A stretch of 64,000 nucleotides of DNA from Octopus sinensis (GCF_006345805.1 NC_043003.1:16182001-16246000), one strand, 5' to 3'; positions 1,722 to 57,206 are shown, counted from the stretch's first letter. Notes: a model not told the origin generated them from the sequence alone. Translations and numbers: made by a program.

Positions 1722-1855
1722 GTGTATCGTTCGCGATTTTTTTTTCCTTCGTCTTCTTTTCTATTGGACTTTCCTCCGTCTCCTTTTTCTGAAGAAGAGC
1801 TTTGCTCGAAATGTGAAACCACTTTTCTTTCCTTCCCTGAGCGTCTGCTAATACT
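1722..1855 (+). mobile_element. Short hammerhead-bearing repeat (family F), degenerate copy
   Basis: ttt-CTGAAGA-agagc-ttt-gctc-GAAA-tgtg-aaa at 1786-1818. Flanks match copies at 25193-25390, 27418-27625 and 48213-48400. Helix III and the cleavage site are mutated. Confidence 0.65.
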
Positions 1856-2000
1856 AATATATATATATATTATTGTGTCTGGGGAGAGTCATTCTCCTTT
1901 ACTTAACACTCTCACCTGTTCGATTTTCACTCATTTACTTATTTATTTTTTCGAAAACATTTTCGTTGCGTCTTGCAAACTTTTCAATAGTCATTCATTC

Positions 2001-2605
2001 TTAGTTAGTTAGTTAATTTGGCTCAAAAGCAAATAGCAAGGCCATGTAGGGGGACATGGAGTTAAGTACAGGGTGGTGTTCATGTAAAGAGTTCAGGCCA
2101 CTTGAGGTCAAGGGAGGCTTTGAACAAAGCGGTCGTCGGCATCTTCACCATCTCGTCTGGCAGCTTGTTCCACGGATCCGCAACCCGGACGGAGAAAGCT
2201 CCTCTCCTTCGATTGAGATGAAATCGTCGCAGGTAGAGCTTTTCGGAATGACCCCGCAGCCGACGCTCTGGAGCAGGAGTGAAGAACAGCTCTTTCGAGG
2301 TTACACTTTCCGCTTATGATGTGTGGCGAGAATGAAATCACCACACGGCGGCGGCGTTTTTCAAGAGAATAAAGGTCGAGCGTCCTCAGCCTTTCTTCGT
2401 AGGACAAATTTTTGAGACCATGAACCATGCGGGTAGCCAACTTCTGGACTCTTTCGAGATGCTGTATGTCATTGAGGGGATAAGGAGAAGAGGCTTGAAT
2501 CCCATACTCCAATATGGGTCTCACCAGCGTGACATAGAGTGGTAGGAATATGGCTGCTGTGAGCATTCCGAATGACCGTCGAATCAAGAACAGAATTCTG
2601 CGTGA
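2001..2605 (-). mobile_element. CR1/L2-group LINE, 5'-truncated 3' end with (TAAC)n tail
   Basis: ORF 2108-2587 contains LYVTLVRPILEY...LERVQKLATR...SYEERLRTLDLYSLEKRR, the typical CR1/L2 RT C-terminal region. A near-identical 3' end recurs at 50051-50218. Confidence 0.9.
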
Positions 2606-2687
2606 TCAGAGCTGCGTTCTTTTTGTTTGTTTATTTGTGCACATGTGTGTGTGTGTGTGTCAGTGTGCATGTGTATATATATATATA

Positions 2688-52495: not shown

Positions 52496-53921
52496 GAAGT
52501 AAGGACTTCCACTTACTCCGCTCAGACATTGCTCACTTAACGCCTCAAATTCAGCTGCTTCTTCCACCGGTGTCCCAACTTTTCCGACTATCAATAATTT
52601 TCGACCATTTCTCTTCTGTTTCGAGGACAAATATCTCACCTTGTCCTTCTCTCAATGATTTCAGCGCTCAAAACTCCTCATGGCTTGCATTCTTACACCT
52701 ATATTGGTAACGGATCTTTTGCAACTCTCAACTCTCTACATTAGTTAGTTTCATGTCTAACGTTTCTCGGACAGACACCTGGTCTATTTTTCTCACCTTC
52801 AAACTCAACCAGCACAAGACCATCGCCATCCTAGGACTTCACACACACCATCCAACTACTTACTGCCTTATGGCAACTACCCACCCACATTCTATATCGA
52901 CGTCGTGTTTGCGACAAAAAATTTTATCGGAGCCATTCATAAATATATAACGGCGTTCTGTCTCTGTCTCCCCCCTCTCTTTCTCTTTCTCTTTGTATAC
53001 ATACATACAAATATATCTATCTATCTATCTATCTATCTATCTATCTATCTATCTATCTATCTATCTATCTATCTATCTATCCATCCGTCAGTCCGTCTGT
53101 CTGTCTGTCTGTCTGTCTGTCTGTCTATCTATCTATCTATCTATCTATCTATCTATCTATCTATCTATCTATCTATCAATCCGTCCGTCTGTCCGTCTGT
53201 CTGTCTGTCTGTCTGTCTGTCTATCTATCTATCTATATATATATATATATATATATATACATACATATATATATATGTAGATAAAACGTATACTTTTATA
53301 TGCATGCATGTATGTATAAGTACGCAAGGTTGTATACACTTACGTGCGCATGCGTATATTTATGTATGTTTGTATGTATATATATCTAGTCAAAATTTAT
53401 TATAACCGACATCCAGCCACATCGAGTCTAATTTGAGTCTAACAAATCCAATACTTCAAAAGTAGAAGTTATACACTAAGCTAACTCTGTGGCAACTCTT
53501 TGCAATGGCTCCGCTAGAAGGCTGTCTAAAACGATATTGGTAATAGCTTCAGTTGATCGTTTCATTGTTGTTGCTGTTGTTGTTTCTGTTGAAGTGTTGA
53601 TATTCCAAGCAATGGTGATGATGGACGGTGTAAAGAATAGATGATGTAAGTAGCGGTGGTGATGATGGTGGTGGTGGTGGTGTTGGTGGTAAGACGAGCG
53701 CGACAACGGTGGTGACGTTGATAATGGTCGTGTTTTTAGTAAGATACTGGCGTAAATGTTATTTCTCTTGTTGCTGACGGTGGTGATGGCGAAGATAGTG
53801 TTGTTGGTAAGCAACACTATTGGTAAGCTGATGGTGTTGGCAATGGTTGCGATGATAGGGTGGTAGTGGTAAGAAATAATGACGATAGTAGTGAGATTGG
53901 GGAGGGAGTGGTATGTTGGTG

Positions 53922-54341
53922 GCCAAGGCGGCGAGCTGGGAGAAACGTTAGCGCGCCGAGCGAGAATGCTTAGTGGTATTTTGTCTGCCGCTGCGTTCTG
54001 AGTTCAAATTCCGCCGAGGTCGACTTTGCCTTTCATTCTTTCGGGGTCGATAAATTAAGTACCAGTTACGCACTGGGGTCGATGTAATCGACTCAATCCG
54101 TTTGTCTGTCCTTGTTTGTCCGCTCTGTGTTTAGCCCCTTGTGGGTAATAAAGAAATAGGTATTTCGTCCGCCGCTGCGTTCTGAGTTCAAATTCCGCCG
54201 AGGTCGACTTTGCCTTTCATCCTTTCGGGGTCGATAAATAAGTACCAGTTACGCACTGGGGTCGATGTAATCGACTCAATCCGTTTGTCTGTCCTTGTTT
54301 GTCCTCTCTGTGTTTAGCCCCTTGTGGGTAGTAAAGAAATA
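53922..54341 (+). mobile_element. SINE-B dimer with 12-bp TSD
   Basis: TSD GGTATGTTGGTG at 53910-53921 and 54342-54353, junction near 54159. Confidence 0.9.
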
Positions 54342-56639
54342 GGTATGTTGGTGACTGTGGTTGTGATGATGATGAGAGCAATGGTAATTGCGTTTGTGAT
54401 GGCGGCGATTGTAACCATGGAATGTAAAAGAAGGACATTGTAGGCTTGCATCAGGTTTGTAGTGTTAATGGGTGATGGTCACTTTTTGTTGCAGCTACTG
54501 CAACTTATTGTTGTTGTTGTTGTTAGAGGAGAGCTGGAGGAGGGAATGGTCTATTGGTACTGGCAACGATGTGCAGCCACTACGTTCTGTGATAATGTTG
54601 TTGTTGTTGTTGTTGTTCTTGTTCTTCTTTTTCTTCTTCTTCTTCATGTTGGCATTCGCAGTATTTGAAACACTGTACCAAATAATAGAAAGATTATATC
54701 CACGCGCAAACACACACACACACTCACACTCACATACACACTCACACTCATATACACACCACAGACACACACATACACACACAAACACACAGAGAAAGAG
54801 AAGAACTTACACACTCTAAGATAAATTCAATTCACATACATACATATATACATACATATCTGTGTGCATATATGTATATATATGCATATATGCCTAAATG
54901 TACATATATGTATATATACTTACATGTACATATATATATCTATATATATATCTATATATATATATAAAAGTGTATAAAATACATGTGTATATATATATAT
55001 ATATATATATATATATACATATATGTATATATATATATATATATATATATATATAATATTTTTTATTTATGGAATAACTGAACGCCACTTTTCCTGACTT
55101 TATATATATATATATATATTATATATATATAGGAAGACAGGGAGAGAAAGAGGGAGAGAGAGAGATAGATAGAGAGAGAGATAGATAGAGAGAGAGAGAG
55201 AGAGAGTAAAAAAAGCGACGTATACAAGTGGAATGAAGAATGGACGACACAACCGTTGATATTAGTAGCGATTCTCCGTATCAGTTTTGAACAGTCTCTA
55301 ATGTAATGGTGGCCAACATCGATCTTAAGAATATATTCTAAACCACCGCCATGATTGGAAGTAATTGAGGGCAAGGATACAATCTGGCAAGATGGCGTTT
55401 TCAGAGAAACGTTTTGATGTATATGTCCTGACAGATTTCATTACATTTCGTTTTCGGTGCATTAAAACTTCATCAATCTAAAGGTTTTGCGGTTGGTGAA
55501 GAAATTCTTCCACTGAATTTAATTTCGATGTTTTTCTATCTGTCTTTCTTTTATTATATTTTGTTTTTGCACCTTTTTTGTCTTCATATTATTATTATTA
55601 TTATTATTGTTATTATTATTATTGTTGTTGTTGTTGTTATTACTGTTGTTGTATTATTATTATTATTGTTGTTGTTGTTGTTGTTGTTGTTGTTATTACT
55701 GTTGTTGTTGTATTATTATTATTATTATTATTATTATTATTATTATTATTATTATTATTATTATTATTGTTAATATTTCCGGTCAAATATTTGTGCAAGG
55801 CGAGTGGTCTTCGAGATTTCTCGACACGTAATATCCATAATGTTCGGAAAAATGAGAATTGACCACATGTTGTGTTTGCCCTGGCGTACCGATACGTTAT
55901 CGCGTCATGAACCGATATATAAGTCCATCGATTGCTACATGCGCGCGCGCGCACACACACACTTACACACGCACACATTCGCACATACTCGCACAAACTT
56001 TAACGCATAAACTTTATCATTTTAACATAGTGAACGCCTTTGTGTATTTGATAAGCCAGAGGCTGCAGTTTTCGTCTGGAGAAAATCCCTTTTATTAAAG
56101 CACCGTAATAAAAAAAAAGACAAAAAAAAACTGTATACCTCAAAGTTAAGCGAAACGAAATTGCCTCAGAATTCACCACGAAAGCCACCGATACATAGTT
56201 CGCCGCAGTTGCAGCTTGTCGATGCCTTCTACTCGTGTCACTTTTGAAACCAGTCTTAAGTATATAGAGATTGTATGTAAACTATATACTGCTTTGAAAA
56301 GACGCTGCATAAGTAGAATAAAATTCAAATTATGCAATAAAAGCAGGTATATAGTAAAAACTCAATATAACAATACGTGGCGTAAATGTTTTGCTGAAAA
56401 GCCAGAAGCTGCAGTTTTGCCTGGCTCTGAAGCATATTGTGTTTCTTTTAACACAGTACGTCTCTAAAGAGATATTTCTCAGGCGAAGCTGCTTCTGTTG
56501 GCTCTTCAGTGATACGTTAAATAGAACGCCGGGAGAGTCCTTATATAAAGTCCTCATAAAGAGATCTTGAAATTGTTCATTAGCGACCAGATAACGATAT
56601 TGAGTCAATATCTACCAGATCTACACTATTTTTTTCCCT

Positions 56640-57206
56640 CTTTTACTTGTTTCAGTCAGTTGACTGCGGCCATGCTGGAGCACCACCTTTAATCGAACAA
56701 ATTGCCTCCAGGACTAGCACTTGTTCTATCGGCCTCTTTTGCCGAACCGACAACATGGGTTGTCAAGCAATGGTGCGGGGACAAACACAGACACAAATAC
56801 ATACGTACATATATATATATATATATATATATATATATATATATATATATATAAACAATTGCAGCGTGGAAGGTGTTTATAAGCCATTTAAGAAACACAC
56901 AAAAGCCGTTCGATTCACTTCAACATTTAAGTTTAATTTGTCAAAATATTTTCGTCGCTAAAATCCGCGACCTGTTCACTGACAAAAATCCGTGCTGCAT
57001 ATATATATTATATGTATATGTATGTATATGTATATATATATATATATATATATATATATATATATATATATATATATATTATATATATATATAGCCCGAG
57101 GCTATAGTAGAAGATACTTGCCCAAGGTGCCACGCAGTGGGACTGAATACTGAACCATGTTGTTGGGAAGCAAGCTACTTACCAGACAGCAGCCACTCCT
57201 GCGCCT
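56640..57206 (-). mobile_element. SINE-A with nested hammerhead-variant insert (56853-56998)
   Basis: Tail 56640-56800 and head 57094-57206, with TA runs either side of the insert. Confidence 0.82.
56937..56986 (-). ncRNA. Hammerhead variant with G3:C8 core
   Basis: Minus strand tttgtca-GTGAACA-g-gtcgc-ggatttta-gcgac-GAAA-atat-TT-tgacaaa. 7-bp helix I, 5-bp helix II, AATATT helix III. Confidence 0.6.

Follow-up and report, generated by a model that had tools for sequence, protein, structure and literature searches.

We consider it probable that the hammerhead ribozyme motifs scattered through a 64,000-nucleotide stretch of Octopus sinensis DNA (the window; positions are counted from its first letter) belong to pieces of Penelope-like element (PLE) pseudo-LTRs set in (TA)n, and that the short pieces are reverse transcripts of capped, uncut leader RNA. 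The PLE anatomy is directly visible: the window elements have (TA)n targets, fold-backs, one-sided tails and partial tandems. For the short copies, the RNA start site and the cap are putative, deduced from junctions in the DNA. That hammerheads and PLEs are linked is itself already established.

Hammerhead motifs in the window

An earlier note on this DNA, made from the sequence alone, listed about 18 hammerhead-like motifs in several unrelated families. The families are indeed several and unrelated, and the 18 motifs make up about 16 insertions, 6508, 6627 and 7018 forming a single one (Table 1). A type I hammerhead descriptor finds 5 loci in the window versus a mean of 0.125 (maximum 1) in 40 block-wise dinucleotide shuffles; a refined version finds 7 versus 0.06 (maximum 1; 50 shuffles), and one allowing other 3:8 pairs finds 9 versus 0.65 (maximum 3; 40 shuffles). 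The excess over dinucleotide-shuffled background expected by the note is present, and the window motifs are confirmed as real sequence features.

Three helices in type I order around the conserved core are found in seven canonical motifs (6331, 21893, 22230, 25286, 27520, 39646 and 43230) and two with a variant core, 24687 (U3.G8) and 56937 (G3:C8). The remaining nine are imperfect, cut or doubtful. Most of them are near-intact or decayed members of real families: 39328, 6508, 6627 and 41655 are imperfect copies, 1786, 48314, 7018 and 1950 are decayed or cut, and 27816 is doubtful. Helix III is palindromic in 7 of 8 window matches versus 2 of 27 matches in 60 shuffles, the palindrome not being required by the descriptor. 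(TA)n lies within 260 nt downstream of 15 of 17 motifs versus 27% of random positions (P = 2e-7; 1950 was excluded and decayed motifs were positioned by hand). Both features had been claimed earlier, and both hold.

Rfam hammerhead models give no match in the window at the gathering score, and the 150 matches listed of the 329 from an E-value search contain solely microsatellite-driven ones; the models do not cover these minimal motifs. Single-strand folding z-scores run from -3.2 (56937) and -2.0 (39646) up to +1.0, with 8 of 10 motifs folding no better than shuffles, as expected where helix III needs a dimer. We predict that the window hammerheads cleave only as dimers or with assistance from a protein. 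Helix covariation, which the earlier note had proposed as a check, is seen to a small extent: one compensatory stem I pair occurs in 2 of 17 family I copies, and stems are otherwise invariant or decaying within families. Subfamilies differ at N7, H17, U4/C4 and loop II.

Table 1. Hammerhead-bearing insertions and related pieces in the window
Feature	Motif	Position	Strand	Details
Family A copy	1786	1713..1855	+	decayed hammerhead; 83% to 27483-27625; CG->TG in helix III, G at position 17
Family N copy	1950	1861..1992	-	U3:A8 hammerhead, decayed here; 3 other copies, 2/3 pass descriptor
Family B fold-back	6331	6272..6466	+	core 6339, predicted cleavage position 6377; other copies in loci L057, L112
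Family C insertion	6508, 6627, 7018	6475..7064	+	inverted arm (6508), forward copy (6627; helix III an odd-length near-palindrome), tandem repeat cut at GAAA (7018); unit ~390 nt; longest ATG ORF 41 aa
Family D	21893	21860..21986	+	intact hammerhead, core 21898
Family E	22230	22001..22330	-	core 22292; 3' half 86% identical to family K, yet hammerhead different
Family F partial tandem	24687	24350..24999	+	468-nt unit; U3.G8 core at 24691 (present in 10/11 family F copies); longest ATG ORF 70 aa
Family A2	25286	25174..25391	-	intact hammerhead, core 25316
Family A	27520	27394..27627	-	intact hammerhead, core 27550
Doubtful decayed hammerhead	27816	27816..27950	-	stems poor, although core and palindrome are there; single copy among fetched loci
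Family H short arm	39328	39325..39398	+	core 39332
Family I partial tandem	39646	39451..40219	-	~570-nt unit, intact hammerhead, core 39723; longest ATG ORF 39 aa; includes inverted piece 40129-40219
Family J	41655	41640..41930	+	95-nt stem II, 2-bp stem I; 3' part repeated in 6 other loci
Family K fold-back	43230	43097..43452	+	short inverted arm, forward arm with ~70-85-nt tail; core 43234, predicted cleavage position 43268
A-like decayed hammerhead	48314	48210..48400	-	
Family M short arm	56937	56857..57000	-	G3:C8 hammerhead, 7-bp stem I, core 56979, fold z -3.2
Fold-back akin to family I 3' end		35341..35646	.	no hammerhead; absent from the earlier note
Fold-back akin to family F 3' end		43945..44075	+	no hammerhead
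Fold-back akin to K/E 3' end		62783..63151	.	no hammerhead
Family M tail fragment		627..691	-	

Density and genome-wide abundance

Intact motifs occur at 110 per Mb in the window versus a genome average of about 10 per Mb, roughly a tenfold difference. By the refined descriptor there are 7 per 64 kb in the window versus 5 per 520 kb in sampled stretches (3-22 per Mb, P = 9e-5); the sample comprised 52 stretches of 10 kb taken by position, 36 across the chromosomes, 10 neighbours and 6 elsewhere on the same contig. The high density is local to the window: the very dense set that had been attributed to the genome is real here, whereas the genome as a whole averages about ten times less. Extrapolation of 3-22 per Mb gives an estimate of 8,000-60,000 intact motifs genome-wide.

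Family M has 5,567 exact 20-mer core matches in the genome, with a control of 0. A DNA search with M had returned no matches; we rejected reading this as absence, very common words probably having been skipped, and the pattern search then gave the 5,567. A first look at the genome yielded 3,355 candidates for family A, 2,043 for F, 1,973 for C, 646 for K (many identical across the query) and 607 for I.

Autonomous PLEs and the parent of family M

Two intact autonomous PLEs were located outside the window in the same genome. One encodes an intact 775-aa RT and GIY-YIG ORF, identical in 3 of 4 fetched loci. Each of its two pseudo-LTRs has a hammerhead, and the element also shows (TA)n ends, inverted copies and a pseudo-LTR partial tandem. 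Contigs of four sequencing runs, whose RNA origin is guessed, span most of this element with no joints listed, and show neither transcription nor RNA ends. The other is the parent of family M. Loci L202 and L213 contain a PLE pseudo-LTR 96-98% identical to the window copy (56937), and at 1.1-1.2 kb before the M hammerhead they have ORFs of 793 and 1,042 aa bearing RT and GIY-YIG motifs. L092, a stretch sampled blindly, contains a divergent M copy that is preceded at 1.4 kb, in the same orientation, by part of an ORF with 64% identity. By sequence identity and linkage, family M is shown to be the pseudo-LTR of an autonomous PLE and not an independent non-coding element, which bears out the Penelope-like link drawn in the earlier note.

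Support for the M-parent ORF comes from its motifs, Atlas clusters and a weak BLAST match to the 775-aa ORF; Pfam gave no real match to it. The presence of CCHH and CX3CXXC rules out the Hydra clade. Candidate clades are Nematis for the M parent and Neptune for the 775-aa element, a tentative placement made by eye from the length of the linker against published supplementary rows.

tblastn with the two PLE proteins finds no PLE ORF in the window, in agreement with the earlier statement that Penelope RT is absent there. Among the fetched loci, which cover two PLE families out of 15,126 and 6,081 EN candidates, no coding parent is linked to A, B, C, D, E, F, H, I, J, K or N; in these loci the link to an RT/GIY-YIG ORF that the note had suggested looking for is found for M and for none of the others. 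An RT piece near one A copy (L126) was dismissed as the A parent, with unrelated DNA in between, and same-strand M pairs kilobases apart (L201, L203) proved to be segmental duplicates and not long tandems. The longest 5' form of K (87 copies, nine loci fetched) shows no upstream extension, the search pattern containing the presumed cap G and so being one that would miss a master copy. The idea that the window elements are non-autonomous and moved in trans probably holds for F (24687), I (39646) and C (6627): these partial tandems contain no ORF, would have to be mobilised in trans and are likely true non-autonomous PLEs. It fails for M.

Fixed 5' edges, an extra G and unequal fold-back arms

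The 5' edge of family M is sharp: the 5,567 core matches compare with 662 for a 21-mer 35 nt upstream, an 8-fold drop, and by hand count the upstream stretch is absent from 17 of 20 sampled M loci. Among the first 100 of 1,941 matches, 40 have G as the base preceding the M start point (hand count), a base that is C or T in the parent; the search pattern had left out A at this position. Of 20 fetched G-bearing copies none has parent sequence upstream, and an inverted arm accounts for two of the 20 Gs. This comparison for an untemplated G is possible in family M alone, K, A, H and others having no parent found. K copies end at one point in all six single and three duplicated loci fetched. Exactly one arm is tailed or long in 45 of 46 fold-backs (30/31 K, 11/11 M, 4/4 H), a count that overstates the independent events, some M and K loci being segmental duplicates and the K query having contained the inverted arm. 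Family I and A copies have scattered 5' ends, like ordinary truncation. The copies retain the whole hammerhead, so their templates were either uncut there or re-ligated.

It is unlikely that the short copies are simply the 5'-truncated 3' ends of full-length PLEs, left when RT from the downstream pseudo-LTR stops too soon, possibly because the hammerhead or the microsatellite-rich UTR directly before it stalls the enzyme. Strong 5' truncation is usual in PLEs, going by the accessible text of two studies (PMC4209133, PMC8557442); the window contains copies cut downstream of the hammerhead (35341, 43945, 62783, 627); longer forms of A and H exist; and the M parent has a microsatellite-like UTR of about 1 kb immediately upstream. 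However, copy number falls 8-fold within 35 nt, yet at least 150 EN-bearing copies are found a further 1.2 kb beyond the edge, which is not a constant fall-off, and stalling would not predict that an extra G recurs at a single precise position.

We give still less credence to a retrozyme route, in which tandem transcripts are cut by dimeric hammerheads, circularized and copied round the circle in trans to give more-than-unit copies. This route was proposed in PMC4209133, and circular RNAs of tandem retrozymes are described in PMC7229834, as far as their accessible text goes. Families F, I and C are ORF-less 1.1-1.6-mers of 390-570-nt units with one hammerhead in each unit, and the palindromic helix III is retained, all of which would suit it. 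K, M, H and A, by contrast, occur as monomers or fold-backs, each strand carrying one hammerhead, and a circle would have neither a cap nor a fixed 5' edge upstream of the ribozyme, while 2 of 11 other F loci share a 5' edge 51 nt before the core. No window insertion contains two complete tandem hammerheads, and no multimer among the fetched loci exceeds about 1.6 units, a length reached by a few F loci. The earlier note leaned towards this route. The window elements are fold-backs and 1.1-1.6-mers and lack the head-to-tail multimer form of classical retrozymes.

A spliced RNA, with the edge as the 3' splice site of a leader intron like that of Drosophila virilis Penelope, which ends at helix I (accessible text of PMC4209133 and PMC8557442), is very improbable: the M edge does have a branch-point-like motif, a pyrimidine run and YAG, and similar YAG sites occur in family I and the 775-aa element, but the G-bearing copies retain the AG and share no letters upstream of the G (20/20), so there is no first exon.

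Proposed origin of the short copies

Under the capped-leader reading that we favour, a Pol II promoter in the pseudo-LTR, with a TATA-like box at about -30 and an initiator-like YA, would start RNA 20-50 nt before the hammerhead. By analogy with the green anole element Poseidon studied in vitro (Frangieh 2024, PMC11167929), the RT-GIY-YIG protein would nick both strands of AT-rich DNA, and reverse transcription would begin at two internal positions in the RNA, both of them downstream of the hammerhead; the segment separating these positions would become the tail. In the accessible text of that work, the tail is set by internal RT start sites, extension takes place on both strands, the main template is uncut RNA with protein-assisted hammerheads, and a C3G/G8C double mutant regains part of cleavage; the corresponding picture here is inferred from DNA. 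Were these start sites used on an upstream leader or a short solo pseudo-LTR transcript, cDNA of about 150-250 nt would run to the cap and gain the extra G. The fold-backs with one long and one short arm, a pattern seen directly, may then be two cDNAs, one per start site, joined head to head.

Whether this is routine for PLEs is evenly balanced in our view: each active PLE may copy its own capped 5' leader and so shed thousands of SINE-sized, hammerhead-intact, cap-G-ended copies, paired head to head after priming on opposite strands at the two start sites.

Comparison with known systems

We compared the elements with published systems as given in the accessible parts of the papers. The PLE pseudo-LTR hammerheads of Cervera and de la Pena 2014 (PMC4209133) likewise have a short helix I, an extra nucleotide after A9 and a palindromic helix III, form many families per genome, mostly as single motifs, include the U3:A8 variant, and occur as opposite-strand pairs 100-700 bp apart. 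A natural U3:A8 hammerhead also appears in the accessible text of Perreault 2011 (PMC3088659). In contrast to the 2014 set, which reaches up to ~9,000 motifs, we estimate 8,000-60,000 intact ones, and one family, with more than 5,500 copies, has a G3:C8 core while another has U3.G8. The C-terminal EN+ PLEs of Craig et al. 2021 (PMC8557442), of the Neptune and Nematis kind, share RT with C-terminal GIY-YIG, the Cys linker and CCHH, partial tandems, an inverted 5'-truncated copy, a one-sided tail, the (TA)n bias and a start site within the pseudo-LTR; their tails are 30-40 nt, whereas those of our short families are about 60-85 nt and that of the 775-aa element is 27 nt.

Animal non-LTR retrozymes (PMC7229834; bioRxiv 10.64898/2026.07.22.740005) resemble the window elements in their non-coding 170-600-nt units, type I hammerhead, kinship with PLE pseudo-LTRs and dispersed monomers, and differ in having head-to-tail dimers to multimers, canonical hammerheads and circular RNAs where we see fold-backs, partial tandems and minimal hammerheads. 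Hammerhead-bearing PLE ends are thus of a known kind (Cervera 2014, Craig 2021, Frangieh 2024). The capped-leader detail is probably unreported: the accessible Poseidon account has no description that we found of cap-terminated leader copies or one-long-one-short arm pairing, and the open literature that we searched mentions neither leader copies with a cap G nor a G3:C8 hammerhead occurring naturally in a PLE, although such variants may be contained in the Cervera 2014 supplements or among the hammerheads listed by Craig 2021.

Implications

These elements bear on what the hammerhead does in PLEs and on where the many solo minimal hammerheads of animal genomes come from. The genome studied here offers intact PLEs with identical copies together with thousands of dated by-products, the ends of which record where RT started and stopped, and the cap-leader, two-start-site and circular-RNA models become testable by junction counts and CAGE. 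If routine leader-copying is true, it would account for the great excess of solo minimal hammerheads over PLE ORFs in animal genomes, and would mean that the ribozyme is bypassed in vivo during insertion; the same reading takes in the G3:C8 hammerhead of an intact PLE, a natural variant present in more than 5,500 copies. It further suggests that many SINE-like or MITE-like short repeats in such genomes may be by-products of PLEs.

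Hammerhead motifs in the window and in the genome

The genome around the window (2.72 Gb) is rich in microsatellites, and its repeats may be of a cephalopod-like type. A type I hammerhead descriptor returned seven motifs in the window, where 50 block-wise dinucleotide shuffles averaged 0.06, and a descriptor admitting other pairs between core positions 3 and 8 returned nine against 0.65. The motif frequency is thus not equal to shuffled background, an equality that the earlier note had named as refuting. Of the roughly 18 motifs that it listed, accounted for by about 16 insertions, seven with a canonical and two with a variant core passed a descriptor, whereas four are imperfect, four decayed or cut and one doubtful. 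Its palindromic helix III and adjoining (TA)n both held: the palindrome, when not assumed by the test, is present in 7/8 window matches versus 2/27 shuffle matches, and (TA)n lies at most 260 nt downstream of 15/17 motifs versus 27% of random positions. An Rfam search of the window gave no match at the gathering score, and single-strand folding scored most window motifs no better than shuffles. Family F (24691) has U3.G8, which is not Watson-Crick, in 10/11 copies; a weaker hammerhead may have accompanied its spread.

The claim of a very dense set applies to the window, with 110 intact motifs per Mb, but not to the genome sample, with 3–22 per Mb (5 in 520 kb, in 10-kb stretches: 36 placed by round coordinates with one motif, 10 neighbours with two, and six more on the same contig with two); the window density is a local high. 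Decayed relatives of the window families are commoner than intact motifs (about 18 BLAST matches in a 360-kb sample). First-look candidates genome-wide number 646 for family K, 607 for I, 3,355 for A, 2,043 for F and 1,973 for C, and family M (56937) has 5,567 exact 20-mer matches, with 0 for the reversed control. The loci fetched contain 19 stem II/helix III types. Around searched copies (flanks of L001-L060 and L101-L140), a hand count gave about 15 matches to other hammerhead families in about 250 kb. This density, roughly 60 per Mb compared with 10 per Mb in the blind samples, suggests clustering, perhaps through insertion of one element into the (TA)n flanks of another. The window is dominated by a 184-bp SINE-like unit and a second SINE-like family.

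Features of the window
Feature	Window positions	Remarks
Canonical-core motifs, descriptor passed	6331, 21893, 22230, 25286, 27520, 39646, 43230	E 22230; A 27520; I 39646; K 43230
Variant-core motifs, descriptor passed	24687, 56937	F, U3.G8; M, G3:C8
Imperfect copies, repeated families	39328, 6508, 6627, 41655	H 39328; C 6508, 6627
Decayed or cut motifs	1786, 48314, 7018, 1950	C 7018
Doubtful motif	27816	
E/K-like 3' half and tail	22001-22179, 43291-43472, 62783-62944	
CCCT(A/G)A tail motif	43437, 24975-24990, 39485-39495	examples, by eye only
Fold-backs without hammerhead	2688-2881, 15203-15261, 28982-29067	relative of 2688-2881 in L086
184-bp SINE-like unit	36932-37488, 53975-54346	tandem and dispersed; many more copies
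Second abundant SINE-like family	3355-3670, 18118-18561	examples
DDE transposase-like fragments	42389-42949, 63537-63977	weak DDE_3 match; no DDE_3 match
Small repeat with CCAAT-like motifs	6-85, 10556-10635, 10991-11058	one more copy in L145

Autonomous Penelope-like partners

A GIY-YIG endonuclease (EN) fragment adjoining a K copy in locus L023 led to a Penelope-like element (PLE) whose 775-aa RT+EN frame, preceded by an ORF, is identical in 3/4 loci fetched; its family has 15,126 EN candidates in the genome. Each of its hammerhead-bearing ends (pseudo-LTRs) carries a palindromic hammerhead, different from those of all window families, and the element has an optional 27-nt tail. In L062 and L063, the upstream ORF (about 280–470 aa, no Pfam match) overlaps the RT frame, and the tail is the 5' UTR running on, with TA patches, directly before the ATG of that ORF.

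Walking upstream of M yielded a second PLE, the M parent, whose protein is 24% identical to that of the 775-aa element. Its ORFs of 793 aa (L202) and 1,042 aa (L213) contain RT motifs, a CX3CXXC linker and a CCHH-type GIY-YIG domain; a microsatellite-like UTR of about 1.1 kb separates them from the M hammerhead downstream. A Pfam search missed this protein; in the Atlas it falls, at 0.97, among the clusters for RT, HTH_animal and GIY-YIG. The family has at least 150 EN-bearing copies. The window M copy is 96–98% identical to the M-parent ends in L202 and L213, and a diverged M copy in the blindly sampled stretch L092 has an M-parent-like ORF piece upstream.

A Penelope RT/GIY-YIG ORF linked to the flanks, which the earlier note proposed to look for, is present for M, but among the two PLE families examined no coding parent was found for the others. 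The picture of non-coding elements mobilised in trans fits the partial tandems of F (468-nt unit), I (about 570 nt) and C (about 390 nt), which have no ORF above 70 codons and would have to move in trans; M is the end of a coding PLE and no independent non-coding element. For F, I and C, a circular retrozyme route is still plausible. As the earlier note states, no Penelope RT was found in the window: tblastn with two PLE proteins from the same genome gave no match, and the long ORFs there stem from read-through of simple repeats or belong to transposon fragments. Outside the window, the L146-L147 junction about 10 kb to the right holds a decayed PLE RT-EN, and about 10–40 kb to the left a U3:A8 hammerhead with palindromic helix III (L142:8606) lies 1.8 kb downstream of M-parent-related ORF pieces (L142:5835-6831).

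Fold-backs and the 5' start of short copies

K, M and H elements are about 150–250 nt long, carry the hammerhead close to their 5' end and usually form head-to-head fold-backs within (TA)n. One arm runs about 60–85 nt further than the other, and exactly one arm is long in 30/31 K, 11/11 M and 4/4 H fold-backs, counts that include duplicate loci and a K query biased towards fold-backs; the sole K exception is clipped by the end of the fetched stretch. PLEs as described in the available text of Craig 2021 (PMC8557442) share with the window elements inverted 5'-truncated copies, a one-sided tail, partial tandems and a (TA)n bias. E and K are 86% identical in their 3' half and tail and differ in the hammerhead, a pattern suggestive of exchanged modules or of rapid ribozyme turnover. 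Several K, E, F and I tails end in CCCT(A/G)A shortly before (TA)n, a motif resembling, by eye, one C-rich telomeric repeat unit.

Matches fall from 5,567 for the M core to 662 for a 21-mer lying 35 nt further upstream, and 17/20 loci from the top of the match list lack this upstream stretch. The M parent has an initiator-like A 22 nt before the core and a TATA-like run 25–32 nt before that A. In the first 100 of 1,941 matches to this start, counted by hand with a pattern excluding A at the preceding position, the letter before the start is most often C (46), followed by G (40) and T (14); in the M parent itself it is C or T. Of the 40 G copies, 20 were fetched; each of them lacks parent sequence upstream, they have nothing in common there, and the inverted arm accounts for two of the 20 Gs. 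Copying of the cap by RTs, such as those of L1 and retroviruses, yields an untemplated G at the transcript start. K has a hard 5' edge with an initial G, 40 nt before the core, which is not callable as untemplated because no K parent was found. In the 775-aa element, an initiator-like site lies about 50 nt upstream of the hammerhead; a TATA-like box precedes this site by 32 nt, and CCAAT boxes are present as well. The 5' ends of I and A copies are spread out, which counts against a general fixed-start rule.

In the anole PLE, according to the available text of Frangieh 2024 (PMC11167929), reverse transcription begins internally at two sites defining the tail, both DNA strands are nicked and extended, the main template is uncut RNA, and the hammerhead requires protein, its cleavage being partly rescued by C3G/G8C. 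Applied here, this would place the RT start sites 150–250 nt from the cap, so that priming in a capped, uncleaved leader would yield short, hammerhead-intact cDNA; two cDNAs, one per start site and on opposite strands, would give an asymmetric fold-back. Full-length RNA (in cis) and transcripts of solo pseudo-LTRs (in trans) could both give rise to such copies and would leave the same DNA. Rival origins of the elements are a spliced leader, plain truncation and the circular route named above for F, I and C.

Relation to described elements

In the literature we found no G3:C8 core occurring naturally in an intact PLE of high copy number, though supplements may hold such cores, and no description of cap-G start-bounded copies or of strict long/short arm pairing. 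Active Penelope families appear in a recent annotation of octopus repeats, whose main text uses neither "hammerhead" nor "ribozyme". The available text of a 2014 study (PMC4209133) describes minimal palindromic hammerheads in many families; most are solo motifs, some are paired on opposite strands, and a U3:A8 variant occurs. The available part of a 2026 preprint (bioRxiv 10.64898/2026.07.22.740005) ties animal retrozymes to PLE pseudo-LTRs. Because both are already described, the window elements are further members of a known hammerhead-PLE kind.
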